From assembly GCA_038065355.1 (NCBI GenBank), contig JBBTRC010000010.1, forward strand, positions 157,844 through 221,843: a DNA stretch of 64,000 nucleotides, given 5' to 3'. The position numbers and the translations under genes were made by a program. The notes beneath the pieces are model-generated. The model was not told the origin of the DNA, did not search any database, and saw nothing but the letters and a program-made list of their open reading frames with translations. Origin of the DNA: Patescibacteria group bacterium. Its GTDB lineage: Bacteria > Patescibacteriota > Minisyncoccia > Phycocordibacterales > UBA918. Shown one piece after another: positions 41 through 29,206 of this stretch. Numbering within the stretch: the first letter of the stretch is position 1; every line of letters starts with the position of its first letter.

Positions 41-137
41 ATCGCGTAGTATAGCAAATGTAATTGACAGAGGGCGACTAGAAAAGTCGCGGAAGCGCCG
101 TATACTTATGAGCATTACATAGATTAATCAACACATC

Positions 138-200
138 ATGGCCAAAGGACACGATCGTAAAAAGGAAGTGAAGAAGCCGAAGAAAGATAAGAAGAAGTAA
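138..200 (+). CDS. micro-ORF encoding a 20 aa lysine-rich peptide, MAKGHDRKKEVKKPKKDKKK
   Basis: ATG at 138 and TAA at 198-200, immediately followed by a strong hairpin terminator. It is below the length cutoff of the ORF track. Confidence 0.25.
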   Translation: MAKGHDRKKEVKKPKKDKKK

Positions 201-206
201 AGAAAA

Positions 207-241
207 AAGCCGCCGGTGCCTTTGGCACCGGCGGCTTTTTT
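207..241. terminator. bidirectional rho-independent terminator
   Basis: aaaaaagccgccggtgcc ttt ggcaccggcggcttttttc: a 12 bp GC-rich stem flanked by an A-run and a T-run. It serves the micro-ORF on + and the minus-strand gene ending at 242. Confidence 0.8.
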
Positions 242-2323: not shown

Positions 2324-2442
2324 AACGTAATTATACGGTGCCGCTTGGTAATTGTTTCATCACAAAAAGAAAACCCGTTCATTCCGGAATGAACGGGTTT
2401 TCTTTTTGTCATAAAAGTTTGGGGTGAGCGTATAATTACGTT
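2324..2442. promoter_or_regulatory. divergent promoter region with dyad architecture
   Basis: A 14 nt inverted repeat (aacgtaattatacg at 2327-2340 and cgtataattacgtt at 2425-2438) abuts both divergent start codons and places a TATAAT 8 nt from each ATG. A central GC hairpin, aaaacccgttcattccggaatgaacgggtttt, lies at 2369-2405. Confidence 0.55.
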
Positions 2443-12803: not shown

Positions 12804-12899
12804 GAGCACCTGACTTTCGTCAGGTGTGTACCGCGATCCGAGCCGGAGCGTTGTGAAGTGCGCAATTCCTAGCGCACAAAACAGCGGGAGAGGTTGCGA

Positions 12900-12943
12900 A
12901 CACAGCCAAAATCACGTACTTTCGTGCGTGATTTTGGCTGTGT
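12900..12943 (+). promoter_or_regulatory. 17 bp perfect hairpin upstream of the acidic protein gene
   Basis: acacagccaaaatcacg tactttcgtg cgtgattttggctgtgt. Confidence 0.5.
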
Positions 12944-12980
12944 TACACTACCTATATATCAGCATGTAATCGTTATCATC

Positions 12981-14168: not shown

Positions 14169-14175
14169 GAAATAA

Positions 14176-14212
14176 AAAAGCGGCGCGGCCTAGAGGCCGC
14201 GCCGCTTTTTGC
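14176..14212. terminator. bidirectional terminator
   Basis: aaaaagcggcgcggcc taga ggccgcgccgctttttgcg. Confidence 0.8.
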
Positions 14213-14240
14213 GTTGTATAAATTCGATACGCCTATTTTC

Positions 14241-14555
14241 TCACACTCCTGGCTTTCGCTCACGCTCCTTAAATACCCAGTCACGAAGTTGCTTGCTGGC
14301 TTTGAGCGCGGCAAAAACAGTGCGGGGATTGCTGTTTGTGTGTACGGCTACTCTCTGACTACTCTGGCCGCTCACTAGTAGCTCAAAGCCAGCTTTCGTA
14401 TGCACTGCCGTCACAAATCTTGTCCCGCTACCAGTGCGGTTTGGCCGGATTTCGCCCGGCGCGATCATTTTGATACCTGGAATTTTCTTAAGTTCTGCGA
14501 CCACAATAGCGGCTGTTTCTGTGAGAGAAGAATGTTCGCGACCGCGGGGCTTTGC
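14241..14555 (-). CDS. hypothetical small protein (~104 aa)
   Basis: Minus-strand ORF MAKPRGREHSS...; no family recognised. It sits between the acidic protein and the pentapeptide-repeat gene. Confidence 0.4.
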   Translation of the reverse strand, partial: AKPRGREHSSLTETAAIVVAELKKIPGIKMIAPGEIRPNRTGSGTRFVTAVHTKAGFELLVSGQSSQRVAVHTNSNPRTVFAALKASKQLRDWVFKERERKPGV

Positions 14556-14582
14556 CATATTTGAGAGCATAGCACAAAAGAA

Positions 14583-14612
14583 AGGCCGGACGCGCGTTGC
14601 GCGTCCGGCCTG
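14583..14612 (-). terminator. terminator after the pentapeptide-repeat gene
   Basis: ggccggacgcgc gttg cgcgtccggcc (11 bp stem) followed on the minus strand by tttcttttg. Confidence 0.7.
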
Positions 14613-14622
14613 GGACTAAAGA

Positions 14623-15198
14623 TCACGTCTGCATGCCCGGTCCAAGCGGACTCGATTTGTCGATCATAGCTTGGACATCTTCACGCGAAAGACCGAGCAT
14701 TCTTCTGGCTGTCGAAGTTGAGACGAAAATACCATTCTTGTGAAGCAGAAGTTGCTGAGCCAGAACTGGGTCAGAAGTAGTGACACTATTTCTGAACCAG
14801 GCGTAAACAAAAATCCATGACGCATTACCCATTACGTCACACAAATCCACGTGTCCTTTAAAGAGGGTACTTTCAAAGTCAGCAACCCCTCTGAAGGTAA
14901 CTTCGACGAAGGTCACTAGACCGGAGAATTCCGTGTTATGGAATGAGGCGTCACTTTTAAAAACAGCACCATCGAAGTGGGTAAATTCGTGGAATTGACT
15001 GCAAATAAAATTGGCACTCTTTTCAAAAATGGCTTCTCTAAAGGAGATATCTTCTGAAAATTCGTGATTGGTTACTCTAATGTCAGTGGTAAAGATAACC
15101 TTATTGAAGTTAGTTCGACCTTGCTTGAGTGCGAGAAAAAACTCCTCCTCAGTCATCTTTTCACACACAAGAGCTTCACCGCTCTCTTCGGTACCCAT
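14623..15198 (-). CDS. pentapeptide-repeat protein
   Basis: 191 aa. The central region is made of consecutive A(D/N/S)(L/F)xx pentapeptides (ANFICSQFHEFTHFDGAVFKSDASFHNTEFSGLVTFVEVTFRGVADFESTLFKGHVDL). Confidence 0.75.
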   Translation of the reverse strand: MGTEESGEALVCEKMTEEEFFLALKQGRTNFNKVIFTTDIRVTNHEFSEDISFREAIFEKSANFICSQFHEFTHFDGAVFKSDASFHNTEFSGLVTFVEVTFRGVADFESTLFKGHVDLCDVMGNASWIFVYAWFRNSVTTSDPVLAQQLLLHKNGIFVSTSTARRMLGLSREDVQAMIDKSSPLGPGMQT

Positions 15199-15262
15199 GT
15201 GGTTATTCCTTTCAAGGTACGGAGTTTAACTGCAACAATACAATCACTTTCTAGGATTTTGT

Positions 15263-15293
15263 CAAGCGGGCGGCACCCATTTTTTGGGTGCCG
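15263..15293. promoter_or_regulatory. perfect 11 bp hairpin in the intergenic region
   Basis: gggcggcaccc atttttt gggtgccgccc. Confidence 0.4.
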
Positions 15294-15477
15294 CCCACCT
15301 TCCAAATAGTTGACTTTATTTGCCATTTTAGGTACTCTTTCCCCGTTCCAACCTTTGTCGCACGTTGTTCACCAGCTCGTCTCGTGAACGACAAAATCAA
15401 CAAAATAATGGAATGGGAGTCCCTCTTAAGGCCGGCCGTTACCTGTCTTTACCAGGGATTCCCACTCGACCGCCACT

Positions 15478-15516
15478 GAAGCGGTAATTTTTGGTTTTTA
15501 CCAAAAATTACCGCTA
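15478..15516. promoter_or_regulatory. perfect 15 bp AT-rich hairpin upstream of rpsS
   Basis: gcggtaatttttggt tttt accaaaaattaccgc. Confidence 0.45.
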
Positions 15517-15663
15517 TACGCGGTATTACCAACTAAATGAAAAGGGTAGTGCTGAGTGAAATTCGCGAAGCTTAGGAATTTTTCGAGGGAGACGTAGTCC
15601 TTCTACGATGACCGAGAAAAATTCCGTAGCGACAAAGAATTTCGCCAGCAGTACCATTTGAAT

Positions 15664-15990
15664 ATGTCACGATCACTCTATAAAGGACCCTACGTAGACG
15701 AGAAACTTCTCAAAAAAATCGCCGGAAAAAAACCCGGAGAGGGTGGCGTCGTCAAGACCTGGTCGCGCCGCTCGGTCATTTCACCAGAAATGGTCGGCTT
15801 CACCTTCGGCGTGCACAATGGCAAGAGCCATGTTGACGTGCTCGTTGCCGAAGAAATGGTCGGCCACAAGTTTGGTGAATTTTCACCAACCAAGAAATTC
15901 CATCGCCACGGAGGTAAGATGCAAAAAGAACTTGAAGTGAAGAAGAAGGAAGCTGAAATTGCCGCCGCGAAAGCTGCGAAGGCTGTGTAA
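15664..15990 (+). CDS. rpsS: 30S ribosomal protein S19
   Basis: [12 protein letters not shown]...[26 protein letters not shown]: the S19 signature, followed by a C-terminal K/A-rich tail. The ATG at 15658 is an alternative start. Confidence 0.93.
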
Positions 15991-15999
15991 TGTCCCCGT

Positions 16000-16323
16000 A
16001 TGAAAGCAATTCTAAAAAATTATCGCCAATCACCACGCAAAGTCCGTTTGCTGGCTGACGTGGTGCGCGGCAAGAAAGTCTCTGACGCACTCTCGACTTT
16101 GCAATTTATCGATAAACGCGCCTCCGGACCGTTTGCCAAACTCATTCAATCAGCCGTTGCGAATGCCAAAGGGCAAGGCAAAGATGTAGAAAAACTCTTC
16201 ATCAAGCACGTGGCCGTCAATAAGGGCGATGTCATGAAGCGCTCTATGCCTCGCGCCCGCGGTTCTGCCTCACGTATTAACAAGCGTAACAGCCATATCT
16301 TAGTTGAGCTTGGCGAGAAATAA
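16000..16323 (+). CDS. rplV: 50S ribosomal protein L22
   Basis: 107 aa L22 family. Confidence 0.92.
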   Translation: MKAILKNYRQSPRKVRLLADVVRGKKVSDALSTLQFIDKRASGPFAKLIQSAVANAKGQGKDVEKLFIKHVAVNKGDVMKRSMPRARGSASRINKRNSHILVELGEK

Positions 16324-16325
16324 TT

Positions 16326-17090
16326 ATGACACACGTAGCACATCCATATGTCCAACGTATCGGCGTCAACCGCGACTGGAAAAGCCGCTGGATTACGACC
16401 GATCCCAAAAAATTCCGTGAGTACCTGCGCGTCGATGCCGCCATTCGCAAATTCCTCAAAACTCGCCTCAAAGGCATGTCTGTTGACGCGATTGAAATCG
16501 AGCGCAGCCAAAAAGATATCCGCATCATTATCAAAACCTCACGCCCCGGTCTTATCATCGGTCGGAGCGGTGAAGGTATCACCAACCTCAAGAAGGAGAT
16601 GAGTCTCTTCCTCCGCAAACAAAAAATGAGCGGCAAGCCTGAAGTCAAGCTTGATATTGAGGAGATTCGTTCGCCAGAATCAAGCGCCCGGATCGTCGGC
16701 CAGATGGTCGCCGAAGGTCTTGAGAAGCGTCTCACCTTCCGCCGCGTCATGAAGCAGACAGTCGAAAAGGTCATGGCCAACCGCGACGTGCAAGGTGTCC
16801 GCATCATCATGGCTGGCCGTCTTGGCGGCGCTGATATGGCTCGCACTGAAGAGCTGAAGAAAGGGCGTATTCCACTCCAGACCCTGCGCGCTGACATCGA
16901 CTTTGCGCGTGTGGAAGCCAACCTGCCGTACGGTGTGATTGGTATTAAGGTATGGATCTACCGCGGCGAAGTCTTTACCGACCGCAAAGCCGGCCAGCAA
17001 GAACAAGCACCGCGTTCCACTCGCGCTCCTCGACAAGAGCAAACGCCGCACACTGCTCGTGCTCCTCGAACTCCAAAGACCACTAAATAA
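16326..17090 (+). CDS. rpsC: 30S ribosomal protein S3
   Basis: 254 aa with S3 KH and C-terminal domains, plus a ~45 aa Q/A/P/R-rich C-terminal extension. Confidence 0.95.
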   Translation: MTHVAHPYVQRIGVNRDWKSRWITTDPKKFREYLRVDAAIRKFLKTRLKGMSVDAIEIERSQKDIRIIIKTSRPGLIIGRSGEGITNLKKEMSLFLRKQKMSGKPEVKLDIEEIRSPESSARIVGQMVAEGLEKRLTFRRVMKQTVEKVMANRDVQGVRIIMAGRLGGADMARTEELKKGRIPLQTLRADIDFARVEANLPYGVIGIKVWIYRGEVFTDRKAGQQEQAPRSTRAPRQEQTPHTARAPRTPKTTK

Positions 17091-17096
17091 TCGCGT

Positions 17097-17531
17097 ATGT
17101 TATTTCCAAAAAAAGTAAAACACCGAAAGTGGCAAACCAATCGCATTAGCGAAGAGCGCCGCAATCGTCCAGATACGCGGGGTATTACCGTGTCCTACGG
17201 CGAGTACGGCCTTAAGGCCACCTCAGCCTCACGGGTGAAATCAAACCAAATCGAAGCCGCTCGCCGCGTCATCTCCCGCACGCTCGGAAAGACGGGCAAG
17301 GTGTGGATTCGCATTTTCCCCGATCGACCGATCACTAAGAAAGCCGCTGAGTTACCGATGGGGAAGGGCAAGGGCGATCCTGACCACTTCGTCTTTGAGG
17401 TACGTCCGGGCCGGATTCTCTTTGAGATCGACGGCGTTCCCGAAGATATCGCTCGCGAAGCGTTTCGTAAGGCCACCGCCAAATTACCAGTAAAAGGAAA
17501 GTTCGTGCGTCGTGAAGACACACGAGTGTAA
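17097..17531 (+). CDS. rplP: 50S ribosomal protein L16
   Basis: 144 aa L16 family (KHRKWQ...PMGKGKG). Confidence 0.95.
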   Translation: MLFPKKVKHRKWQTNRISEERRNRPDTRGITVSYGEYGLKATSASRVKSNQIEAARRVISRTLGKTGKVWIRIFPDRPITKKAAELPMGKGKGDPDHFVFEVRPGRILFEIDGVPEDIAREAFRKATAKLPVKGKFVRREDTRV

Positions 17532-17541
17532 TCGTTTCTCT

Positions 17542-17742
17542 ATGACAAATATGCAAGACATTCGCAAAAAGTCTGATAAAGAGCTCGCCGAAATGGTGAG
17601 TGAAGCGCGCAAAGACGTGCGGCAAGAACGATTTAAAGATCGTTTCAGTCGCAAGGCCGGCGCTATCCGTCAGGCCAAGCAAACGATTGCTCGTGTGCTC
17701 GGTGAATTATCAGCTCGCCGTCATAATCCTGATACCAAATAG
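17542..17742 (+). CDS. rpmC: 50S ribosomal protein L29
   Basis: The start is taken as the ATG at 17542 (MTNMQDIRKKSDKELAEM), after the rplP stop. L29 family. Confidence 0.85.
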   Translation: MTNMQDIRKKSDKELAEMVSEARKDVRQERFKDRFSRKAGAIRQAKQTIARVLGELSARRHNPDTK

Positions 17743-17745
17743 CGT

Positions 17746-17997
17746 ATGAGTACCGAATATACAAGCAACGGTCGCGTGTTCCGCGGAAAGGTGATTGCCT
17801 CAAAAATGAAAGATACAATCACGGTAGCGGTCGAGCGATATGTCAAACACCCAAAATACAAGAAGTTCCTTCGCCGCACGAAGAAGTATCTCGTGCATGA
17901 CGTGGGAAATACTGCCCAAATCGGTGATGTGGTCGACATCAAAGAAACCCGCCCGATTTCAAAGCGCAAGAGCTTTATGCTCCTAACTAGCAAGTAG
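17746..17997 (+). CDS. rpsQ: 30S ribosomal protein S17
   Basis: 83 aa S17 family. Confidence 0.93.
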   Translation: MSTEYTSNGRVFRGKVIASKMKDTITVAVERYVKHPKYKKFLRRTKKYLVHDVGNTAQIGDVVDIKETRPISKRKSFMLLTSK

Positions 17998-18724: not shown

Positions 18725-19264
18725 ATGGAAACAGTACAGACTCGCATGCAAAAAGCATTTGACGCACTCAAAGGCACTTTTGCGTATACAAACGTCAACC
18801 AAGTACCAAAGGTTGAGAAAATAATCGTATCGGTCGGCGTTGGCCGCGTCGAAGACAAAGCCAAGTTGGCACTGATCCAAGATCGTCTAGCGCGCATCAC
18901 CGGCCAAAAGCCGGCACCGCGTCCAGCCAAGCAATCAATTGCTTCGTTCAAGCTTCGTCAAGGCGACATCGTGGGCTACCAGGTGACCCTCCGCGGCGCT
19001 CGTATGCAGCATTTCTTGGATAAGCTCATTCACCTCGCCTTGCCGCAAACTCGCGACTTCCGCGGGCTCAAACTTTCGTCAATCGACGAGATGGGCAATT
19101 ACACCATGGGCATCAAGGAACATACCATTTTCCCAGAAACGGCTGACGAAGAAATTAAAGACGTGTTTGGCATGTCGATCACTATCGTGACGACCGCCAA
19201 AAACAAGACTGAATCAGAAGCCATTCTCCGCCACATTGGCTTGCCGCTACAAAAAGCTGAATAG
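18725..19264 (+). CDS. rplE: 50S ribosomal protein L5
   Basis: 179 aa L5 family. Confidence 0.95.
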   Translation: METVQTRMQKAFDALKGTFAYTNVNQVPKVEKIIVSVGVGRVEDKAKLALIQDRLARITGQKPAPRPAKQSIASFKLRQGDIVGYQVTLRGARMQHFLDKLIHLALPQTRDFRGLKLSSIDEMGNYTMGIKEHTIFPETADEEIKDVFGMSITIVTTAKNKTESEAILRHIGLPLQKAE

Positions 19265-19546
19265 CTTTTTAGAAAGCACACTGTTGTGCTTTCGGGTAGA
19301 GGCAAGAGGCGGAGTCATGTTTTTTGCTCATTTCCATAGAGCAAAAAACAGACGAGCTCGGGTGAGAAAGTGTTGGATACTTTCGCAAGACCTTTTGAGA
19401 TATTTTGAAGAATGAAAAATACCCAAAAGGTATACCGCTTCTGTAAGAAGGAAGTTCTTAATGAGCGTAGCGAATTTAGAAACTTGACCCTGCCGCTGCA
19501 GAAACCAACTGAATAGTTGGTTCTCAGACTTCAGAACAAAAGTCAC

Positions 19547-19581
19547 CACAAAACCAGCGACATGTGTCGCTGGTTTTGTGT
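19547..19581. terminator. 16 bp perfect hairpin (one of several) in the rplE-downstream gap
   Basis: cacaaaaccagcgaca tg tgtcgctggttttgtg. Further hairpins lie at 19270-19300 and 19318-19352. This region separates the converging + ribosomal unit and the - block. Confidence 0.6.
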
Positions 19582-19637
19582 AAAAGAAAACGCGCGCAGC
19601 TGTGGCTACGCGCGAGATATCATAAACTCAAATGGTG

Positions 19638-20366
19638 TTAGAACTTGAGCTTCTCTAGGTCTTGGAGCAGGTTTTCGAAACTGACGACGACCGGCTGTCC
19701 AAGTGCATAGGCAATGAACTTTTGGTCAACGCCGAGTGCTTCGACTTCTGGACAGCCAGCCAACCTTCCGGCTAAAGCGGGAGGTTTGTCGCTTCCCGGG
19801 TCGGTATACCAGCTAATTAACTGCTTGTCCGCCTCCCGGCCAATTTGTCGGTGAAACACCAGCAAATTGTTCGTCACAGCTGTACGTTCGTCTGGTTCGA
19901 GTACTGAGCCGGCTCGACCAATAAGAAACAACCCTAAGTACTGTCGGCGCAGGTGGTCTTCGATAGTGCGTCCGTCAAATACTTTTTCGCCGAGGATTCG
20001 CACTCCTTCGGAGTCAGCAGTTTCTCGCAAGACGTTGTTTAAGTAGTCATCAAGATTAAAAACATTCGCTACCGTTTTCTGTGCTTGAGACGGCAGCGTC
20101 GCATAGGCCGCTTTAATTTCTTTGATCAACTTAATCAGGTTTGGCAAGTCGACAAATTCACCATGCGCTAATTTCCAGGCGGCGACTGTAAAACTGTTTT
20201 CTGAAAACCCGAATCGATCTTGCAGATGTTTAAGGTCAGTGCCGAGTTCAGTAAGTGTTTTCTTGAGATCAAGCTTATTCTTCATAAGACGCTCGACCAT
20301 AGACTGTAACGCTAAAGCGCCAACAAACATTGCACCGGCCCGTAACAGAGGATAGATCGCGATCAT
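19638..20366 (-). CDS. hypothetical protein with an N-terminal hydrophobic segment (last gene of the minus-strand block)
   Basis: 242 aa; no family recognised. Confidence 0.55.
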   Translation of the reverse strand: MIAIYPLLRAGAMFVGALALQSMVERLMKNKLDLKKTLTELGTDLKHLQDRFGFSENSFTVAAWKLAHGEFVDLPNLIKLIKEIKAAYATLPSQAQKTVANVFNLDDYLNNVLRETADSEGVRILGEKVFDGRTIEDHLRRQYLGLFLIGRAGSVLEPDERTAVTNNLLVFHRQIGREADKQLISWYTDPGSDKPPALAGRLAGCPEVEALGVDQKFIAYALGQPVVVSFENLLQDLEKLKF

Positions 20367-20502
20367 GCACGCTCCTTTGTAAAGATCACTTCCGTACCAG
20401 TAAACAAGTTTTTAGAATAAAAGCAAGTTTTGCACAATATAGAAAAACGGCTCGCCTGGTAGGCGAGCCGTGAGTTAAGAACAAAGTTGTTAAAACGAAA
20501 TA

Positions 20503-22158
20503 TCATTCCCAGGTGTTACCCAGTCTTGACTGTAGCTCAGTCGGCCAGGCTTTTGATTGCAAGGGATCTACCCAGACAACCACTCCAGTACGAGCGTCGG
20601 TGATAGCAATTTCTGGTGTAGCGCCAGTGATAAATTCCATCGCCCCGACCTCTGACTCGGTCTGTTTGACGGCTACGACGGTTGTCATCCAGAAAAGTCG
20701 CTCCGTCACTTCACCCTTTCGATTCGAAAATTTACGAATGAAGGGACGGTGTTCGACTGGTCGGAAGCGAGTCCAGTCGTAATTTTTCTTCGACTCTTCT
20801 ACTTTTGGTCCGACTGTACTTACGCCAATTAACTTCGTGCCCCGAGTCGAATGTTGGTATTGGTATATCAGCCTCGAACCGTCAGCCGGAATGAATAAAC
20901 TGGTCGCGAGACCTTGTTTCTCCGGATCAAATGGTTCAAGCGCAAAGTAAGCATAGAGAGCCCCTATTTTTTCACCAGGCATTTTGAAGTGCAAAGTGAA
21001 TGGTTGAGGGTTGACGTCGTCAGGCAAATTAGGAATGCGCACATCTCCACTATGCACGCCAGGGAGTGGTCCAGTGAAGCCTTCTTGGAAGCGAAAGCTT
21101 TCCGCAACGAAACGGGTTACCTGTGGTGCGACCAGATTTTGGCCGCGCAGAAAGGTGTGTTTCGAAACGTTGCGGGGAGAGACGTATTCCCCACACCCAA
21201 TTAATGGACGCAACAGTTCTGTCCAGTGGGGCCGCTTACCTTCTTGACGCACAATTTGGACACCACCAAACTCCGGTCGAGGAAAAAATAAACCGCTCCA
21301 TTTAATGAGTGAGACGACCTGTATCCATTCGCCGGTGTCATCCTGCATGTACAGAATGTTGCTGGGCTCATGGTTTAAAAATCGCCAAGGGCCAAACGAA
21401 CGCAGAGTGCACGAGTGAAGATTGTTGGAGAACAACATCTCTTCGCCAGTGCGAAACCGCACTCGGATTGGATTAGTTCGTGAGAAGTCAGGAGACGGCG
21501 ATGTAGCCGGTATACTCATGATTTCTCCGACGGATCCAGTCATACGGCCAACGAACCGTGCCGGCTGTACCGCTATTGTCCAGACGTCTCCGTGTTTGGT
21601 ATGTACCAAGTCAGGAACCGTCGGTCGTAATTGACTTTCGTCCATTCGTTCACGAATGAGTGAGTGTACGGCGTTAAGTGGCAGTACTCGCTCGTTCGCA
21701 GTTGTTGGAAGTAATCGCAGATCAACAATCTCAAGTGTTTGATACTGTTGAAAAGATGCAATGTACCGGTTGACTGGCTCTAGTCTTGCTAGTGCCACCG
21801 AAGTCAAAAGCAGACAAACGAATGTGGCAGTACCACGAACACGAATTGTCTGTTTCCGGGTCGTAAACCAAGTGATGCCGGTCAGCACCATCACGGTTAG
21901 GATGGCGCCGAAATAAATCCGAACGCCATGGATGAATGGTTGATATGCCCATCGTATATGCAGCAAGACAAGCGGCACTACGATGAGCATAGTCTTCGTC
22001 AGCCGTGGATGCTTCTTGAAAACCGATTTAATACTTACCAGTGTGTGGTGAATGAACCATCCCACCGGCGAGCGTTCCTTGCTTGCCTTTTTGGCGACAA
22101 CAGGAGCAATCGGTTTTTCAGTTTTACTCATGTCGATTTCCTCCAGTAAATCGCTCAA
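20503..22158 (-). CDS. hypothetical membrane protein: 3 N-terminal TM helices plus a ~400 aa extracytoplasmic domain
   Basis: 551 aa. It overlaps the upstream gene by 35 nt, indicating translational coupling. Confidence 0.6.
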   Translation of the reverse strand: MSDLLEEIDMSKTEKPIAPVVAKKASKERSPVGWFIHHTLVSIKSVFKKHPRLTKTMLIVVPLVLLHIRWAYQPFIHGVRIYFGAILTVMVLTGITWFTTRKQTIRVRGTATFVCLLLTSVALARLEPVNRYIASFQQYQTLEIVDLRLLPTTANERVLPLNAVHSLIRERMDESQLRPTVPDLVHTKHGDVWTIAVQPARFVGRMTGSVGEIMSIPATSPSPDFSRTNPIRVRFRTGEEMLFSNNLHSCTLRSFGPWRFLNHEPSNILYMQDDTGEWIQVVSLIKWSGLFFPRPEFGGVQIVRQEGKRPHWTELLRPLIGCGEYVSPRNVSKHTFLRGQNLVAPQVTRFVAESFRFQEGFTGPLPGVHSGDVRIPNLPDDVNPQPFTLHFKMPGEKIGALYAYFALEPFDPEKQGLATSLFIPADGSRLIYQYQHSTRGTKLIGVSTVGPKVEESKKNYDWTRFRPVEHRPFIRKFSNRKGEVTERLFWMTTVVAVKQTESEVGAMEFITGATPEIAITDARTGVVVWVDPLQSKAWPTELQSRLGNTWE

Positions 22159-22813
22159 GCACTGCTCGAGGATCTTTTTGCGGCTGTTCTGGTGCTGACT
22201 CCTCCGAAGTCGCCGACGGAGTAAGTGTCTCTAGCGGCTTGTTGACGACAGGTTCAGGGGGTGAGCTGGTAAGCGCTTCGCGAGCGTCACGCAACTTTTC
22301 CCCAACGGCGTCACCGATTTTTTCCGTAACGTCTTTGGCGACGGCACCGGCCGCATTAGCAGCTCCTCTCGCAACTTGACCAGCCATTTCGCCAGCTAGC
22401 TGCTTGAGGGTAATTTCCTTACTCTCGACTTTGTCGAGTCGAGTCGCAACCTTGTCGAGAAGGAAGTCACCGAGACGGATAAATGGCGTGACTAGATAGA
22501 ATCCAGCGACCATAAAACCCGCTTCAAGTGCCCACATGATTATCTCGACAGTGAAATCAACTTCTTCTGCCCGCCAAACTACGTACGCGCTCTGAACAAA
22601 CGAGATAATCGACGCAAACCATAGCTTGCGTCGAGCTGGTTGTCCCACAATAAAACCTCGTCGATCACTTAGTGGTAACGGGTCTTTGTGAGTCATTCGA
22701 TGCAGCCAGCGACGCGTAGGGACGCCAAATTTGGTGTCCGCCATTGCCCAAATAATTCCTAACAAAAGGAACATAATGAGCAAGCCAAGGGCCTTTGAGA
22801 AACTTATCTCCAT
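22124..22813 (-). CDS. hypothetical membrane protein: 3 TM helices plus a C-terminal amphipathic Ala/Gly/Lys-rich region
   Basis: 229 aa. It starts 3 nt after the upstream gene's stop. Confidence 0.6.
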   Translation of the reverse strand: MEISFSKALGLLIMFLLLGIIWAMADTKFGVPTRRWLHRMTHKDPLPLSDRRGFIVGQPARRKLWFASIISFVQSAYVVWRAEEVDFTVEIIMWALEAGFMVAGFYLVTPFIRLGDFLLDKVATRLDKVESKEITLKQLAGEMAGQVARGAANAAGAVAKDVTEKIGDAVGEKLRDAREALTSSPPEPVVNKPLETLTPSATSEESAPEQPQKDPRAVLERFTGGNRHE

Positions 22814-22815
22814 GT

Positions 22816-24084
22816 TTACTTCCTTTCGGTGTAGGTTTTATCTGAGTTGTAACCGACGATTTGCTTACGAGCGACTGCTCGCATTGGCTTACTCCAGGTT
22901 TGGTAGCGGTCAAGAAAAAGATTCTTATCAACCGCGTAGAGACGCATGACGTCAACTGGCCACGCTTGCACGTGACAAATTAATCGCCACACTAAGTTTT
23001 CTTCATGTCGGGTAGAAGTGTTCACTGGATGTAGCAAGCATGCTTGCACTTCCGATGAAACTGTCGGCAAAACTTGATCTTCGGTAATCTTGACAGCAAA
23101 TTCTTCGAGTTCAGCGTACACGTCCACGAATGGATGTTTACACCGACTCAAAGCACCTTTAGCATGTCCGTCGGTCATTGTGTCGACCGGTATTTCAGGG
23201 TCGACCGTTGACAAGATGAAGAGACCAAGTGTGGCTAGACGTTCTTGCAGAACGTGCGGGTGTGTTTGGTACCAACGCACGTCAATGTCGGCGACACCGC
23301 TTTCACGAATACGTGACACAACGTTTGGGTCGCGCACATGTGTTGTATAGGGTACCAATTCTGCACCGGCCTTATCTACCAACTTTTCGTTTTCAACAAC
23401 GATGAGTGCCCGCTGTCGTTGGTGCCTAAAGACGTAAACCCCTCCGAGCGCGGCGGTATAGAAGTCGTCGAACTCAGAAAATGTAAAGTCGTCGATCACC
23501 AGCTGGCGATCGTATAATTTTCCATTTTCGTTGAGGTCTTTTATTATCTTTTTTCGTAGTCCCGTGTCCATCCAAGCGTCTGTATCTTCACGCATGAATT
23601 CACCGACGAGTTGCTTTTGTTGAATTGCTTTATCAGCTAGTGTTCCAGCATGCGACACTATCTTAATAGTCCGAAGACTTTCGACGTGTGTCAGTTTCCG
23701 ATACCACGTGACACGTTGATCAATTTCAAGTGCAATGCCGGTTTCTGCTGTCAGGTTGGCAATTGCTTCCCGATTTTTCTCAAAGTATCGCTGCATCATC
23801 AATCGATCAAACGAGTGGGCCGGCATGTAAATTGGCTGGTTCTCTTGGTTGATAGTGACGATTATTCCGCGCGGATTTGCTAAACCGTGCGAAAGATAAT
23901 AGCGATTTTGAAACTCATCGGCAATTTCCGGCGACCAACCAATCCCATCGATGTGGAAATGGTCGAGCGTTGTCGGTGTTAAACCGAGCTGTTCCATGCA
24001 TACACGATATCGTTTGATTGTTTCTGGTCGGTCGATGAGAATGAGTCCACCGCCAACCAGCGCCGTTCTTGTAAGCTCCCTCAT
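22816..24084 (-). CDS. hypothetical soluble protein, 422 aa
   Basis: No recognisable motif. It is tightly linked to the downstream membrane-protein genes. Confidence 0.6.
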   Translation of the reverse strand: MRELTRTALVGGGLILIDRPETIKRYRVCMEQLGLTPTTLDHFHIDGIGWSPEIADEFQNRYYLSHGLANPRGIIVTINQENQPIYMPAHSFDRLMMQRYFEKNREAIANLTAETGIALEIDQRVTWYRKLTHVESLRTIKIVSHAGTLADKAIQQKQLVGEFMREDTDAWMDTGLRKKIIKDLNENGKLYDRQLVIDDFTFSEFDDFYTAALGGVYVFRHQRQRALIVVENEKLVDKAGAELVPYTTHVRDPNVVSRIRESGVADIDVRWYQTHPHVLQERLATLGLFILSTVDPEIPVDTMTDGHAKGALSRCKHPFVDVYAELEEFAVKITEDQVLPTVSSEVQACLLHPVNTSTRHEENLVWRLICHVQAWPVDVMRLYAVDKNLFLDRYQTWSKPMRAVARKQIVGYNSDKTYTERK

Positions 24085-24152
24085 TGTTCATCTCCGAGTT
24101 AAGGGGTTGTGGGTGGTAAGTCGGGTGGCCATTAGCCACCCGACTCAGATTT

Positions 24153-26108
24153 TCAGAGCTCAGTCTTTTCTTGCTTCAGTTCCGTATGCGCTTTTAACTG
24201 CACACGAATTCTTTTTTTCTCCGCCTCGACCTCTCGCCGAAACTGCTTTTCAGCAATGGTGGCAAAAGCGTCAAGGTAACGAGACGTCTCTTGCACCCAG
24301 ACGTCCTGCATCTTGAGGGTGCCCATGTTCTGGTGCATAAGGTCTTTAAGCATCGCACGTTTTTGCTCGTAGTCACGGCGGAAAAACACTTCTGGCTTTT
24401 CCATCCATTCGTCAGGCGGATCGAAATCCACCATTCGGGCTGACACAGCTGATTGAATGTTGCGAACTTCTCGGGACGAGAAGCCGTCAAATTCTTTCTG
24501 TACCGATGCCGCCAATACCGCGAAAAACTTAAACTCAGTCACGGCATGCTGTTTCAGAACTCGGTCAAAAATATCTCGCATTGTCGAATGCTTGGGAGCA
24601 TCGTAATGTTCGAGACTTTGTGACAGACTGACCAGCTCAGCTTGCAGCGACATGTATTCGTAGTCTGTTGGATCAGTCATGTTGGCAGTAAATTCTGGCA
24701 CAGCGTCCCGAAAATGCTTCCACCACAAGCGATCTTGGTCGAGGAAGTCTTCCCAGCGCCGCGCTCCGTTAATGGGAAAGCGAGCTTGGTGCCTTGAAAG
24801 TACGGCTGGATCAATCTGTTCCGGTAAGTTGGTGAAGGTCTCAATGACTGATGACCCCCGCTGTATATACACCGCACCAGCCCCTTCGGTGCCGGTTAAG
24901 AACTGGCTGATGACTTCACGAACGCCGGCCGATACCCCCTGCTGCATAGTTCGGTCTTGGAGTACTTGCTCGGCATCGTCAATCGCACCATACACGATCC
25001 GTTTTGGATCATTGAATTTTCTGAACCAGGCGTGCATCCGTTCGGCTGATCCACCTTGGTAGGTCGAGATGACCGTACCGCCAAGCGGATGATAGTCAAA
25101 AGGTATGCCAATCATGGTACAGATGTCATGGAACAAGGTAGCGGTCGCCGCAATTTGCAACGACTTACCAGTTCCGGGCACGCCGTGGCCGAGACGAACG
25201 TTTTGAAACGACCCAGTTAGTTCACGGAACGGATTCCGCTGCATAATCGGATCGTAACAACACACTCGAAACACCATCCGACGGGCTTCGTGTTTCGCTT
25301 CGCGGTTTCCGACGATGGTGTCGAATGAAGTGCGAGTAAACTCCACCTTCGCGCTTTCGTCCCGCGTTTCCGCGGTGAAGCCGTGAATAGTGAACTCACT
25401 GCCTTCTAGTTGGTATGAACGCTCGGTAAACGGTTCCGCAAACATGATCGTGCTCTGCACGCTCTTGATGTCTTCGAGAACTTTCTCAAAGTACACCCGC
25501 GTGAGTTTCACAAATGCTTCCGGAGTTTTTTCCGTTAATCGTTCGAGTGATTCAACGTAAAAGTAGATAAGCGAGCGGAGTGAACCAGCTCGGTTACTGT
25601 AGTCCAAACGAGGCATATCGAAATCAGGTACCGACACGCTGTTAACGGCGTCGGTGTGATACGTCGATAGTTCCCATAGGATGTAGTATGCTGCCACAAA
25701 ACGAGTGACATGCGCCATCGTCTGGTTTTTCTTGTAGAATTCTACGCGCTCAGCTTCGCTGCTGAACCCGCCACTTCTTGTCTGTTGATTGTTTAAGATC
25801 TCGAGACCGGAAGCGTTTTTGTAGAGTTCCGCGATGTGAGTCCCAAGTTCAACACCCTGCTTCACGATGTGGAGCGTGTGATTGACCTTGTCCGCTAGCA
25901 ATTTGGACTCAATCGGCCCGAATGTTCGGGCAACATCGAGTGCCTTTTTGGTAGCAGTAATGTCTCTGGTACTGCCGGCCGCGTAACCGCGGTCGGCAGT
26001 ACGATGCTGCACCACTTGATCAACATTTTCAAGTAGATCAAGGGCGGTGCGTCCGTATCGCTGCAGGTCACTACGGGTGACCTGCAGCGGCGCTTCGTTA
26101 GATTGCAT
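24153..26108 (-). CDS. AAA+ ATPase (classical AAA clade) with a ~300 aa N-terminal domain of unknown function
   Basis: Walker A GVPGTGKS, Walker-B-like IVYGAIDDAEQ, and a second region of homology (TNLPEQIDPAVLSRHQARF) that aligns to the FtsH/Vps4-type SRH. The start is taken as the ATG at 26108 (MQSNEAPLQ), which is preceded by GGAGGT and lies 5 nt after the upstream stop. The longer ORF-track start would overlap the upstream gene by 173 nt. Confidence 0.7.
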   Translation of the reverse strand: MQSNEAPLQVTRSDLQRYGRTALDLLENVDQVVQHRTADRGYAAGSTRDITATKKALDVARTFGPIESKLLADKVNHTLHIVKQGVELGTHIAELYKNASGLEILNNQQTRSGGFSSEAERVEFYKKNQTMAHVTRFVAAYYILWELSTYHTDAVNSVSVPDFDMPRLDYSNRAGSLRSLIYFYVESLERLTEKTPEAFVKLTRVYFEKVLEDIKSVQSTIMFAEPFTERSYQLEGSEFTIHGFTAETRDESAKVEFTRTSFDTIVGNREAKHEARRMVFRVCCYDPIMQRNPFRELTGSFQNVRLGHGVPGTGKSLQIAATATLFHDICTMIGIPFDYHPLGGTVISTYQGGSAERMHAWFRKFNDPKRIVYGAIDDAEQVLQDRTMQQGVSAGVREVISQFLTGTEGAGAVYIQRGSSVIETFTNLPEQIDPAVLSRHQARFPINGARRWEDFLDQDRLWWKHFRDAVPEFTANMTDPTDYEYMSLQAELVSLSQSLEHYDAPKHSTMRDIFDRVLKQHAVTEFKFFAVLAASVQKEFDGFSSREVRNIQSAVSARMVDFDPPDEWMEKPEVFFRRDYEQKRAMLKDLMHQNMGTLKMQDVWVQETSRYLDAFATIAEKQFRREVEAEKKRIRVQLKAHTELKQEKTEL

Positions 26109-27243
26109 TAACGTAACCTCCGTTGGTATAAGTGATCTTGCGATCAGGGGTTGAAAGAAGTGCTTGAACGCGTTCTCCTTTTTCAGAGTGAGCAATTTGT
26201 GCCAATCGATGAGGCAGTAGCATAAAGCCTTGGCTGTATGTTGCTCCTCGCTCGATGGCGCGCTCGTCATTGCTGGTAAGGTCGAAGAGCTCGTATCGTT
26301 GTTTTTTTCCTAGTAAGGGTATGCCTGGCCCCACGGTTTTTTTTGACTGAACTTCGTCAAAGGAAAACCGCAACACCACATCCCCATCTTCAGCGAGTTC
26401 GGAGAAGAAAAAGTTAGCCGCCAACTCTTCTGGAGTAGGTGACTCATTTAGTCGAATGAGACGCTTCGTGAACAAACGATCGAGCATAATCTTCGTTAAC
26501 CGTTTGGGGTGAATGTAGGGAAGCGACCGATCGATGTCGTGCGCCACCAGGCTCACCGAAGGTGTGCGATGGCCGACCCGACGTATCACTTGCAATAAAG
26601 CGGCGAACGCCGGGCCTTTTTCATGCATTGGGTCAATTGCCTCGTGTACATCTTGAGTAAACTCAAGGATGTACACTGCCGGGCAATGGTCGTTTGATGA
26701 GTAACACGACCACCAGAACGTATACCTGCGTTCGTGGTGTTTCTTATCGCGTGGTGCGACGTCGTGATGACGAAGCTCACCGTTCACGACTGGTAGAGTC
26801 ATGTAACGTTGATCCAAAAGATCAAGATAGCGTCGCTCGCCAATTCGCCACAGTAAATCGGAGTCGTCGCCGCCCGTTTTAAGCGCTTGGTCCAGCCAAA
26901 CTTGCTTGTGAATTCGCGAATCTACCAACTGACGTTGGTGTTCATCGCGACTGATTAGATCGATCATTGTTCCTTCAATCTCTGAATGGTTGGGAAATCC
27001 ATTTAACCCAATACTGAGTGCTTCACCGGTAAGTGAGGCGTGGGTAAACGCATACTTCAGGTGCAACGCTGCGCCCGTGTAGGCTAGTCGCGCTGCGGTG
27101 TTCTTAAGAGCATTTTCTATCATCGTTCGCTCCGGATGACCGGGGATCAAGAGATCCGCCAGCTTCGGAAGAAGCGTTGAAATTGTCGAAAATGTCTTAA
27201 AGTACTCGTTGTACGTCGATCCAGTGTCGGATACATCTGACAT
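26098..27243 (-). CDS. hypothetical protein, 381 aa
   Basis: No recognisable domain. It is immediately upstream of, and probably coupled to, the AAA+ gene. Confidence 0.55.
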   Translation of the reverse strand: MSDVSDTGSTYNEYFKTFSTISTLLPKLADLLIPGHPERTMIENALKNTAARLAYTGAALHLKYAFTHASLTGEALSIGLNGFPNHSEIEGTMIDLISRDEHQRQLVDSRIHKQVWLDQALKTGGDDSDLLWRIGERRYLDLLDQRYMTLPVVNGELRHHDVAPRDKKHHERRYTFWWSCYSSNDHCPAVYILEFTQDVHEAIDPMHEKGPAFAALLQVIRRVGHRTPSVSLVAHDIDRSLPYIHPKRLTKIMLDRLFTKRLIRLNESPTPEELAANFFFSELAEDGDVVLRFSFDEVQSKKTVGPGIPLLGKKQRYELFDLTSNDERAIERGATYSQGFMLLPHRLAQIAHSEKGERVQALLSTPDRKITYTNGGYVNAI

Positions 27244-27261
27244 GGTCGATCTCCTTTCGAA

Positions 27262-27300
27262 GTTGTTGCAAGCTCAAAAATGGGGGTCATCGCAATGCAA
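27262..27300 (-). terminator. terminator after the coiled-coil gene (minus strand)
   Basis: The minus strand reads gggggtcat cgcaatgca atgacccccattttt. Confidence 0.65.
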
Positions 27301-27322
27301 TGACCCCCAGGGTGGCCTCGAA

Positions 27323-28693
27323 TTAGAGCGAAAACTCTTTGATCGAAGCCGATGAGCCAGAGCCGTCTGTTGGTGAGCCGCCGCTTTTTGCAAAAAAGCG
27401 ATCTCGCCAGTCTTTGATCATCTGCGCGTCTTCTTGTTCGATGTAGCGAAGTTCGCTGTCGAGCTTCAACGCGATCTCTCTTTGTGCGCGCATCACGGCC
27501 GGATGTTGTTTTCCGTACGTAATACGAGCTCGCTCAACGGCGTTATACACGTCGGCTGCTCCTCGGGCAGCATCGATGCTGTCCTGTCGAGACACTGAGT
27601 TAAGTTCGTTCTGTACGTTGAGGTCAGAAAGACCTTTAATCAGTTCGACACGAATGGCGGTGATTTCTCGGTTGAGTTTCGCCGCCGCTGTGCCGATACG
27701 CACCGACCGCTCATAGTTGCCGCGGAGGGTCGTGAGACCATCGCGCTGCATGATGAGCGTCTGCATTTTTTCTTCGAGCTCTTGGGCCTCACCCATCGCC
27801 GCGTCCATTTTGGCTTTGAGTTGACCCTTTTTCTCTCGAGCGTCGTCGATTTGCTGTTGGAGTTCAGTGTACGCCGGAGTATTCCGCTCGAGCGCACCCT
27901 CGTCCATCTGTGCTTGAAGGCGAGTAACTTGGGCTTCCTGCTTCTGGAAGTCGATTTGTGCCTGCGCGTGCTCGTCGACAGCCATCTTGTGACGCTTTGA
28001 AGTTGCAGCCAAGACGGTCTTTCGACGTTCGAGCGATTTGGTAGCCATTTCGACTCGTTCACGCAGAACAGTGTTTGCTCGTTCATGCATAGCTCGAATG
28101 GCAGTGCTCGACTCCTCCATGGTGGCGTTTTGCAGAATTTCGCGCTGCCGCCGATCGGCTTTCGCCGGAGCGTCTTTTATCGCTTGTTCTGCAGATGCCA
28201 GTTTATTTTTTGCCGCAGACAGAGCACCCGCCGCTTCGTCAACTGCACCCTTGCCCCACGCAAAGAAAAGGAAACGACCTTGCTTTGACTCGGCGACCTT
28301 AAGGTCGGCGGTGGCAGCGGTGACCGCAGTTTGGGCATTTTTGCCTTCCACGTCGGCGTCGTCAATTATCTTCCGTGCGTCAGGATGCATAGTTTCCAGG
28401 TTCGCAATATCCGATCCTTGCTGCTTTGCGAGCTCGTGTAGAGCAACGGCCAGGTCAGCCAGGTCTTTTGAATCCTGAATTTCGTCAGCCATGACTTCTT
28501 CGATGGTGCGACGAATGTCGCGAACAGGAATATCCTTGGCCGTGATCTTGCCGCTTTCTTCCAGGGCTCGATCAAGGCGCGTCTCAAGTTCGACGAAGGG
28601 GTCTTTAATGTTTAGGCGGTTTTCGGCCCGAGACAGGGCTTTTGAAGCCTCTTGTTCAAGGGTTTTACCGTCTAAAGAGAACTCTTCAGGCAT
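27323..28693 (-). CDS. long coiled-coil protein, 456 aa
   Basis: Extensive heptad-repeat character, Q/E/A/K/R-rich (QKQEAQVTRLQAQMDEG...KKGQLKAKMDAAMGEAQELEEKMQTL), with an AAGGA SD-like element 9 nt upstream. It is the first gene of the minus-strand block. Confidence 0.6.
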   Translation of the reverse strand: MPEEFSLDGKTLEQEASKALSRAENRLNIKDPFVELETRLDRALEESGKITAKDIPVRDIRRTIEEVMADEIQDSKDLADLAVALHELAKQQGSDIANLETMHPDARKIIDDADVEGKNAQTAVTAATADLKVAESKQGRFLFFAWGKGAVDEAAGALSAAKNKLASAEQAIKDAPAKADRRQREILQNATMEESSTAIRAMHERANTVLRERVEMATKSLERRKTVLAATSKRHKMAVDEHAQAQIDFQKQEAQVTRLQAQMDEGALERNTPAYTELQQQIDDAREKKGQLKAKMDAAMGEAQELEEKMQTLIMQRDGLTTLRGNYERSVRIGTAAAKLNREITAIRVELIKGLSDLNVQNELNSVSRQDSIDAARGAADVYNAVERARITYGKQHPAVMRAQREIALKLDSELRYIEQEDAQMIKDWRDRFFAKSGGSPTDGSGSSASIKEFSL

Positions 28694-29020
28694 GTCATTG
28701 TCCTTTCTCTAGGTTGATTGTTTTAGAATGATATTTCGTTGTCAACGAACAGCCGAAATACCTACTAAGATATGACGGTTCGCTACCCACATGTATATAC
28801 CATTTTTAGTGTATTGTCAAGTTTTTGTAGCCTTTGGTATAGCTATAGATTGCTATTTTTGGGCTTTCTGGTATTGTAGCGGGCACGACGAACTTGGAGA
28901 TTCTAACTAGAAAACCCAGTCGTTGAAGGCGAGTTTTGGCGGCAGCCAATACGAGCCGGATTTATAAGGAAACACGTCACCAATTCTAGGTGATACGGTT
29001 TCATCACCTAACCAACATAC

Positions 29021-29206
29021 GTGGCACGAAAATCATTGATTTTGCGTTCAGTGCGCAAACCAAAGTTTAAATCGCGTGTCGTCCGCCGTTGCAAGCTTTG
29101 CGCTCGCCGCCGCGGCTACATGCGTGACTTCGACATGTGCCGAATTTGCTTCCGCGAACTCGCACACGAAGGTCAGATACCAGGCGTAAAAAAATCATCA
29201 TGGTAG
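29021..29206 (+). CDS. rpsZ: 30S ribosomal protein S14 type Z (Zn-ribbon short form)
   Basis: 61 aa with a GTG start and the CxxC...CxxC motif ([40 protein letters not shown]). A hairpin (taggtgat acggtttc atcaccta) lies at 28987-29012 just upstream. Confidence 0.92.

Follow-up and report, generated by a model that had tools for sequence, protein, structure and literature searches.

Few molecular motors have been studied as thoroughly as the classical AAA proteins, and to our knowledge nearly every one of these in bacteria has a known job, either as FtsH or, in the actinobacteria, as ARC/Mpa and Cpa. What, then, is the work of the unusual ATPase of this clade that is encoded on the minus strand at positions 24153..26108 of a 64,000-nucleotide stretch of contig JBBTRC010000010.1 (hereafter the window) from a bacterium of the Patescibacteria group? 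The 651 amino acid product is deposited as MEK7639313.1, "MAG: AAA family ATPase [Patescibacteria group bacterium]". An original prediction, made from the DNA letters and their open reading frames (ORFs), described it as an atypical ATPase with two aspartates in the Walker B motif and a large N-terminal domain, and overlooked what is the real finding at this locus, namely a conserved cassette of six genes. The AAA gene is the third in a co-directional run, g1-g2-AAA-DUF6638-g5-g6, which encodes four soluble and two membrane proteins. The cassette is solid, widely conserved and experimentally tractable, and its biological role is put forward below as a hypothesis.

A Conserved Six-Gene Cassette

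The same six genes in identical order were found in a Patescibacteria metagenome-assembled genome (MAG), in Pelagicoccus (Verrucomicrobiota) and in a MAG of the Bdellovibrionota. Iterated hidden Markov models (HMMs) were used to count the cassette genes in 84 genome loci, with the loci that had enough flank serving as denominators. In 70 of 70 loci g1 lay upstream of the AAA gene, g2 was present in 67 of 70, a DUF6638 gene adjoined the AAA gene in 65 of 67, and g5 and g6 were each present in 64 of 67. The reciprocal search, which started from DUF6638 in metagenomes, found the AAA gene upstream in 50/54 loci, and where the flanks of these DUF6638-anchored loci were long, all six genes were there in 29 of the 32. 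The window shows the complete pattern, an AAA protein of about 650 amino acids with the DD Walker B and a pore loop reading ST[FY]QGGS, whose gene has a PF20343 gene beside it and the coiled-coil g1 ahead of it, and this pattern recurs in 84 genome and 80 metagenome loci. The starts and stops within the cassette overlap by 11, 8, 4 or 1 nucleotides.

A scan of one genome per GTDB species showed that the ATPase is encoded in at least 509 species, and the taxonomy was read from the top 80 of these. Most of the 80 are Flavobacteriaceae, many of them cultured, such as Tenacibaculum, Polaribacter, Winogradskyella, Aequorivita nionensis and Ulvibacter, and the remainder include Saccharibacteria, Lloydbacteria, Sungiibacteriota, Buchananbacteria, Trueperaceae, Opitutaceae, Desulfuromonadales, Chitinophagales and Gammaproteobacteria. 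The cassette would have spread horizontally among bacteria. The ATPase constitutes a new and deep family of a well-known kind, and the cassette is undescribed in the literature and databases that were searched.

The AAA Core

The reading frame of the AAA gene is open over 24153..26270 in its longest form, the first 54 codons of which overlap the preceding gene g2, whose stop codon lies at 26100-26098. The start had been re-assigned in the original prediction to the ATG at 26108-26106, and this choice was borne out. A Shine-Dalgarno sequence, GGAGGT, can be read directly from the minus strand at 26116..26121 with a 7-nucleotide spacer to the ATG, the resulting overlap with the g2 stop is 11 nucleotides, and overlaps of 11 or 8 nucleotides between the AAA start and the upstream stop are seen again at homologous loci in other phyla. 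The start call is right, as the full-length homologs have 646-657 amino acids and align over ~100% of the window protein, and the 651 amino acid product is identical to MEK7639313.1.

A single Pfam match was above threshold in this product, that of PF00004 over residues 308-444 (E=1.9e-8, 35.2 bits against a cutoff of 21.2 bits). When a profile built from 21 diverse AAA homologs was searched against the PDB, it matched chains of the classical clade only, all of them weakly and over residues 310-447 only: Cdc48 (1e-7, residues 310-438), Rpt4 (1.6e-6), VAT (7e-6), FtsH (7e-5, 2r62) and Vps4 (1.5e-4), with Afg2 and Pex6 also among the matches. The protein had been likened to FtsH, Vps4 and katanin; the classical clade and the first two names held in this search, and no katanin chain was matched at E<=0.001. 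There is one AAA domain only, with no transmembrane (TM) segment by hydropathy and no peptidase domain. By homology the window ATPase is a single-ring, very divergent and deep-branching member of the classical clade.

The large (alpha/beta) subdomain, supported by PF00004 and by the alignments to Rpt4, Cdc48 and FtsH, spans residues 258-445 (24774..25337, minus strand, as are all the features of the gene given here). All of the motifs quoted in the original prediction, Walker A, the Walker B AIDDAE and the second region of homology (SRH) TNLPEQIDPAVLSRHQARF, were found in the 651 amino acid product. Walker A, GVPGTGKS (G309-S316, 25161..25184), can be read from the sequence and is conserved in the family, with G.PGTGK[ST] kept in 203 of 206 sequences in a motif scan and three that did not match the pattern. 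Pore loop 1, STYQGGS (S348-S354, 25047..25067), aligns with K-Y-I-G-E-S of Rpt4, and ST[FY]QGGS is present in 198/203 homologs. Here, Y/F350-Q351-G352 falls on K-Y-I-G of Rpt4, such that the aromatic residue and the glycine are conserved and the middle residue is an invariant glutamine, in place of the usual aromatic-hydrophobic-glycine order. The SRH (T426-F444, 24777..24833), whose pattern was found in 195 of the 203 homologs, carries the sensor-1 asparagine N427; T426-N427, R439 and R443 are invariant, and in the alignments they fall on TNRPdxLDPALLR of Rpt4 and Cdc48, with the two arginines spaced R-x3-R as against the usual R-x2-R. The residues that are invariant or nearly so across the family comprise G309 and P311-K315; S348, Q351, G352 and S354; D377, D378 and E380; T407-A410; and T426, N427, R439 and R443. 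Among these, T407-A410 is an E-G-A element that aligns on the D-G-F/M inter-subunit signalling motif.

The Walker B motif reads YGAIDDAE (Y373-E380, 24969..24992; AIDDAE is A375-E380), and the window protein thus has a variant of the motif, not a loss of it, in place of the hhhhDE form with its catalytic glutamate. HMM alignments to Rpt4 and Cdc48 set I-D-D-A-E on I-D-E-I-D, with D378 on the glutamate, and D378 therefore replaces the catalytic residue, while the Mg-binding D377 and an acidic residue at +3 are kept. This had been called unusual on the evidence of one protein, and a family-wide conservation check now extends it to every readable member: D377, D378 and E380 are invariant in the 21 diverse homologs, and DD is present in all 203 sequences with a matched Walker A. 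Even at 27% identity the pair is there, as TIDDIDQ in Vibrio vulnificus and TIDDVDQ in Sinorhizobium meliloti, and since it is fixed down to this branch, DD is an ancestral, selected feature and not a decaying site. One precedent for an aspartate here is documented, in the D2 ring of NSF, whose 'hydrolysis' residue is D604 (PMC2120109).

The helical lid subdomain extends from residue 446 to about 600 (24309..24773) and was placed by conservation. Within it lies GFSSREVRNIQ (24453-24485), in which F543, S545, R546, R549, N550 and I551 are invariant. In our own reading these residues would represent the GFSGADI lid motif of classical AAA proteins, which would leave an insertion of about 50 residues in the lid.

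The N-Domain and Membership of Known Families

Upstream of the ATPase core lies a region (residues 1-255, 25344..26108) that was said in the original prediction to be a large N-domain of some 300-330 residues with no recognizable domain. The second part of that statement stands, with no match to the N-terminal region in Pfam, NCBIfam, PHROG or PADLOC. The length does not, since the AAA module starts at about residue 258, where T-S-F-D-T-I-V-G-N aligns with the entry sequence v-t-F-d-d-V-a-G (the FtsH alignment begins at 263), and the N-domain is therefore of about 255 amino acids. An AlphaFold2 model made from an alignment of 89 sequences (predicted local distance difference test, pLDDT, 93.8; predicted template modelling score, pTM, 0.90) has a small three-stranded sheet and short helices in residues 8-63, followed by a bundle of long helices at 73-100, 102-112, 118-147, 173-189 and 196-216. 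Foldseek found no structural neighbour in the PDB (best E=0.2, TM-score 0.18) or among viral models (best E=0.1), all TM-scores being below 0.2. As modelled, the N-domain appears to be a new fold without known neighbour. It is kept end to end in the proteobacterial branch of 27% identity, with a tblastn match that spans residues 2-648, and we infer that it serves as a substrate or adaptor module.

Membership of the established families was examined one family at a time. For Clp/Hsp100, there was no Clp_N or AAA_2 match in Pfam and no Clp chain among the Foldseek or profile matches; for FtsH, no hydrophobic segment and no Peptidase_M41 match; for Vps4, katanin and spastin, no MIT match in Pfam and no MIT structure in Foldseek, the Vps4 core being matched at E=1.5e-4 only; and for Cdc48, p97 and NSF, there is only one AAA stretch and the N-domain is a small sheet with a long-helix bundle and not a double-psi barrel. 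The original prediction had named an N-domain of the ClpA/ClpB type, together with close homologs annotated as chaperones, as the signs of a routine Clp-like protein. Neither was seen in the Foldseek results or the annotations, the homologs being named "AAA family ATPase", "ATP-binding protein" or "hypothetical" and none of them a chaperone.

The Partner Proteins and the Layout of the Cassette

The cassette begins with g1 (27323..28693, minus strand; AAB388_04100), which encodes a coiled-coil protein of 456 amino acids with weak matches of coiled-coil type, such as SMC and keratin. Upstream of it, at 28717..28745 on the same strand, is the sigma-70-like promoter-like site TTGACA-17-AACAAT, with 10/12 consensus matches; such sites are no more frequent in the region than shuffling leads one to expect, and this one is a consensus match only. 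A terminator-like hairpin of 13 pairs with a T-run was found by sequence scan between g1 and g2 (27281..27309, minus strand), and could possibly act as an attenuator that raises g1 expression over that of the downstream genes. The g2 gene (26098..27243, minus strand; MEK7639314.1) encodes a soluble protein of 381 amino acids with no known domain. The 68-nucleotide spacer between the AAA gene and the DUF6638 gene holds a perfect, GC-rich hairpin of 14 bp without a T-run (24117..24147, minus strand; −29 kcal/mol, z=−4.96), which may serve in processing or stability, or as a barrier in translational coupling. There follows g4 (22816..24084, minus strand; MEK7639312.1), the DUF6638 protein of 422 amino acids (PF20343, E=1.9e-36). 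The g5 gene (22124..22813, minus strand) encodes a membrane protein of 229 amino acids with about three TM helices by hydropathy and a cytoplasmic low-complexity C-terminal tail, and g6 (20503..22131, minus strand; AAB388_04075) one of 542 amino acids that has three TM helices at the N-terminus and, after them, a beta-rich domain of about 400 residues, as read from hydropathy and AlphaFold2. The run is closed by a hairpin resembling an intrinsic terminator, with 11 pairs (8 of them G-C) and TTTTT (20447..20471, minus strand; sequence scan). Across 19200-29100, Rfam gave no regulatory RNA at E<=1.

Apart from the DUF6638 protein, the partners belong to families without annotation. No Pfam match was obtained for g1, g2, g5 or g6, either with the window copies or with divergent orthologs, nor was there a match in NCBIfam, PADLOC or PHROG beyond coiled-coil noise, or a sequence relative in the PDB. 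Against the PDB at E<=1, g1 found only keratin, APC and a designed helical bundle. ESCRT-III, PspA, Vipp1 and TelA were considered as identities for g1 and rejected: none is among those PDB matches, five divergent members had no Pfam match, and a comparison by hhalign with a genuine TelA encoded at a neighbouring locus reached no better than E=0.41. A profile search with g1 in a large protein database returned three matches, a result made uninformative by low-complexity words. The comparative-genomics literature on PSP and ESCRT, including a survey of neighbourhoods of PSP and Vps4-like genes (PMC11237479), describes operons that differ from the cassette, and in a literature search no paper mentioned DUF6638 and nothing relevant was found on DUF2333, a family that enters below.

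The AlphaFold2 model of g6 (pLDDT 93.2) shows an amphipathic helix, then three hydrophobic helices and then the beta-rich domain of about 400 residues. The N-terminus and the loop between TM2 and TM3 are positively charged, and the large domain is therefore predicted to face outward. Foldseek against the PDB gave marginal matches only, the best being the uncharacterized 5coz (E=2.4e-4, TM-scores 0.14-0.20), followed by weak propeller-like ones. An exhaustive profile search of 1.84 billion representatives returned just 312 relatives (representative clusters), which makes g6 a closed family. Ten unusually long relatives were found to carry no Pfam domain, the sole informative fusion being that of g5 to g6. 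One g6 homolog (P0123), 52% identical to the patescibacterial protein, bears the name "Acinetobacter sp." in NCBI and UniRef; its contig is probably mis-binned or a contaminant. The cassette proteins and the N- and C-terminal regions of the ATPase were also compared with one another for paralogy, and the pairwise hhalign probabilities were all <=3.2%.

Variant Operons

The cassette is modular. In a Lloydbacteria locus (L015) it is reduced to g1-AAA-g5-g6, with g2 and g4 both missing, while in Trueperaceae and related loci, and on Vibrio megaplasmids, only g1-g2-AAA-DUF6638 is present. In S. meliloti these four genes are followed by one for a DUF2333 membrane protein, and the genes are homologous to those of the cassette by hhalign (g4, 5.7e-41; g2, 3.3e-29; g1, 6.6e-13). 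A patescibacterial relative with 61% identity has the soluble module, then two small ORFs and then a DUF2333 protein. Thus, g1 and the ATPase form an invariant core, g2 and DUF6638 are present or missing as a pair, and the membrane module is exchangeable or absent. A relationship of g6 to DUF2333 was rejected (hhalign E=0.066 over 13 columns). The g5-g6 fusion was recognized among distant g6 relatives of about 820-835 amino acids (P0340, P0343 and P0345) that have an N-terminal extension of 240-295 residues; in P0340 the extension matches the conserved TM1/GF[IV] segment of g5 (hhalign E=2.8e-6), and it is on this match, confined to one distant clade, that the fusion is based.

Several further observations were made on individual copies. 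The DUF2333 membrane proteins that stand in place of g5 and g6 are encoded at 14148-15371 in S. meliloti Ak57 (L086) and at 7608-8912 in L088. In the Ak57 locus an ISRm16 transposase and a gene with an endonuclease domain are inserted between the AAA and DUF6638 genes, and the record is labelled "plasmid pSymB" yet is 3.7 Mb long and has chromosomal genes. SMc02733 of S. meliloti has been listed as an intragenic ChvI-bound fragment (PMC3687685); it is unconfirmed as a cassette gene and carries no weight here. In many of the Flavobacteriaceae copies (L019-L084) the operon holds additional genes on the same strand: a NUDIX hydrolase (PF00293) between AAA and DUF6638 in 27 loci, four-helix-bundle genes like 23S-rRNA-IVP/bAvd (PF05635) in the g2/AAA gap of 10 loci and in the g4/g5 gap of 4, and a GIY-YIG gene between g1 and g2 in 2. 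Outside the Flavobacteriaceae the copies are compact, with overlapping stops and starts.

Genomic Surroundings

In the window, rplE (L5, 18725-19264) is separated from rpsN (type Z S14, 29021-29206) by the cassette and a further ORF (19638-20366), all on the opposite strand, which split the normally contiguous spc operon over 18725-29206. The GC content of the cassette (0.47-0.52) is near that of the flanks (0.49-0.53) and hence gives no compositional sign of recent transfer. Close relatives hold the cassette in other genomic contexts. The further ORF, on the minus strand just downstream of the cassette terminator, encodes 242 amino acids, with a hydrophobic stretch at the N-terminus. Neither a Pfam match nor a homolog in any of the 84 related loci was obtained for it, and two strong hairpins of terminator type (19614-19591 and 19580-19547) come after it. 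The ribosomal cluster is interrupted a second time (12894-15198), between rplB (L2, 11909-12769) and the genes ahead of rpsC (S3, 16326-17090), by ORFs of 424 amino acids (12894-14168, plus strand) and 191 amino acids (14623-15198, minus strand), neither of which has an NCBIfam match.

In a 59%-identical patescibacterial relative (L087), dnaK-dnaJ lie upstream of the cassette on the same strand (128-3169), and downstream (13025-17953) are genes for TelA, DUF4178, DUF2617, a 543 amino acid ORF and a DUF350 protein. This gene set recalls the envelope-stress clusters associated with PspA and, as a single instance, hints at a stress or envelope function.

A Proposed Role and Its Rivals

The reading we favour, with about as much confidence as doubt, is that the AAA gene encodes the ATP-driven motor of a self-contained bacterial machine, membrane-linked in most lineages, that would remodel a partner. 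The nucleotide site, the arginine fingers and the aromatic pore loop are all intact in the sequence of the window ATPase. By analogy with other AAA motors, a hexameric ring would most likely engage a partner polypeptide through its Y/F-Q-G loops and thread or pull it, and the DD Walker B suggests hydrolysis that is slow or gated by a partner, rather than decay. The N-domain is a likely docking platform for g1, for the g2/DUF6638 pair or for both. The constant association of g1 with the ATPase makes its coiled coil the strongest candidate for a client or scaffold, and the terminator-like hairpin after g1 would fit, weakly, with an output of g1 that exceeds that of the motor, as for a structural client. 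The g2 and DUF6638 proteins would most likely be cofactors or adaptors; the starts and stops of their genes overlap or abut the AAA gene, which is consistent with translational coupling. The complex would act at the cytoplasmic membrane through the exchangeable module, either g5 and g6 or a DUF2333 protein, each of which is predicted to have a large domain outside the cell. Put together, the motor may remodel a coiled-coil assembly at the membrane, probably in envelope maintenance or stress, with a logic like that of NSF/SNAP/SNARE or Vps4/ESCRT-III.

Several points weigh against this reading. No relation of g1 to ESCRT-III, PspA, Vipp1 or TelA is detectable, and the analogy to NSF and Vps4 is thus architectural only. 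Some lineages have no membrane module, which means that membrane linkage is not universal. The DD Walker B might mean very little hydrolysis, and the genes that flank the cassette vary between genomes and give no consistent functional hint. A bolder version, which we regard as doubtful, is a membrane-remodelling or repair machine spread across phyla, in which the AAA protein would disassemble or recycle a polymerizing g1 at the inner face of the membrane under the control of membrane proteins with large extracellular sensor domains. If true, this would be a bacterial counterpart, in function, of Vps4/ESCRT-III or NSF/SNARE, with components of wholly unrelated origin and an Asp-type Walker B.

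The same aspartate is what gives substance to an alternative in which nothing is translocated at all, the ATPase being an ATP-binding assembly scaffold or switch that organizes the cassette proteins and hydrolyses very slowly, like the D2 ring of NSF. That ring is mainly an oligomerization domain, and it too has an aspartate (D604) where every member of the present family has replaced the catalytic glutamate. Also in favour of this view, the D604Q 'hydrolysis' mutant of D2 retains 42% of wild-type activity (PMC2120109). We consider such a scaffold to be unlikely, as strong purifying selection acts on features that only hydrolysis-coupled work requires, namely both SRH arginines, the sensor-1 asparagine and the aromatic pore loop, and as a single ring leaves no second, active ring to do the work. 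A further proposal is that the machine energizes export or surface assembly, with the motor feeding or extracting a protein via g5/g6 or the DUF2333 complex in the manner of Bcs1 or Msp1. There are two membrane proteins to build upon, g6 has a large and highly conserved domain predicted outside the cell, the cytoplasmic tail of g5 could be engaged by the pore, and the g5-g6 fusion exists; against this, g5 and g6 together have only about six TM helices and no similarity to known channels, complete g1-g2-AAA-DUF6638 operons without a membrane gene exist, and no cargo gene bearing a signal peptide is conserved in the cassette, so that we consider export improbable.

Defence against phages, or some other conflict, is improbable to a similar degree. 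In such a system the external domain of g6 would sense an attack and the ATPase would trigger or execute an abortive response, and the patchy spread across phyla, which suggests horizontal transfer, the inserted look of the cassette between rplE and rpsN on the opposite strand, and the exchangeable membrane module all speak for it. However, PADLOC v2 matched none of the six proteins (g1 alone gave hits of coiled-coil type to JetC, at E>=0.017), PHROG gave a generic AAA match only, and phage genomes gave none. IMG/VR yielded one generic AAA match in a scan that was partly saturated by the generic Walker A pattern and is thus a weaker negative. The plasmid matches were all chromids or mislabelled chromosomes and non-mobilizable, no nuclease, toxin or other effector domain is recognizable, the neighbours are housekeeping genes and not defence islands, and the many Flavobacteriaceae genera with a cassette fit vertical inheritance in that family. 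Finally, the generic AAA similarity is all that would commend a routine chaperone or protease subunit of the Clp, FtsH or Cdc48 type, which is very improbable indeed: the best PDB profile match (E=1e-7) covers residues 310-438 only, the NCBIfam CDC48 model scored 22.7 bits against a cutoff of 802.65 and no NCBIfam FtsH model was matched, and the protein has a single AAA domain with no TM segment, no peptidase and no Clp_N, MIT or double-psi-barrel N-domain. Moreover, a genuine FtsH is encoded elsewhere in the window, at 62717, where it had already been pointed out (TIGR01241, E=7e-145; RPGRFD is visible in its sequence).

The hosts of the ATPase extend from Patescibacteria with minimal genomes to cultured marine Flavobacteriaceae, Vibrio and Sinorhizobium have distant versions, and genetics is therefore feasible. 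Three traits set the system apart, namely a family-wide replacement of Glu by Asp in the only ring, an N-domain without a solved relative and five dedicated partner families, four of which are absent from Pfam. To solve its role would be to assign a function to six protein families at once, and would put to the test whether a single-ring AAA motor can work with a DD Walker B.

Comparison with Known Systems

The best profile matches of the window ATPase are with Cdc48/p97/VAT and Rpt/PAN, with which it has in common the surroundings of Walker A, an aromatic residue in pore loop 1, the T-N of sensor 1, the SRH arginines and the E-G-A element on D-G-F/M. Cdc48, however, has two rings and the window ATPase one, with a DD Walker B and a lid insertion of about 50 amino acids, and its mostly helical N-domain is neither the double-psi barrel nor the coiled-coil/OB arrangement of the Cdc48 and Rpt proteins. 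Its partners also differ from theirs, being four unannotated families and DUF6638. FtsH, as encoded at 62717, is likewise of the classical clade, but the window ATPase is without its TM helices and M41 peptidase, and where FtsH has IIFVDEID in Walker B and MFVGVG in the pore, the window ATPase has DD and YQG.

Systems that work on membranes resemble the cassette in architecture. Vps4/CdvC with ESCRT-III, and the PspA/Vipp1 proteins, are likewise made up of a single-ring classical AAA with helical or coiled-coil partners and membrane proteins, although the window ATPase lacks the MIT domain of Vps4. In NSF/SNAP/SNARE, an AAA protein works with adaptors on a coiled-coil client at a membrane, an arrangement that the cassette resembles by architecture only, as g1, g2 and DUF6638 have no sequence relation to SNAREs or SNAPs. 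NSF is composed of N, D1 and D2, of which the DE-type D1 does the work and D2 carries the aspartate, whereas in the window ATPase the sole ring is itself of the DD type.

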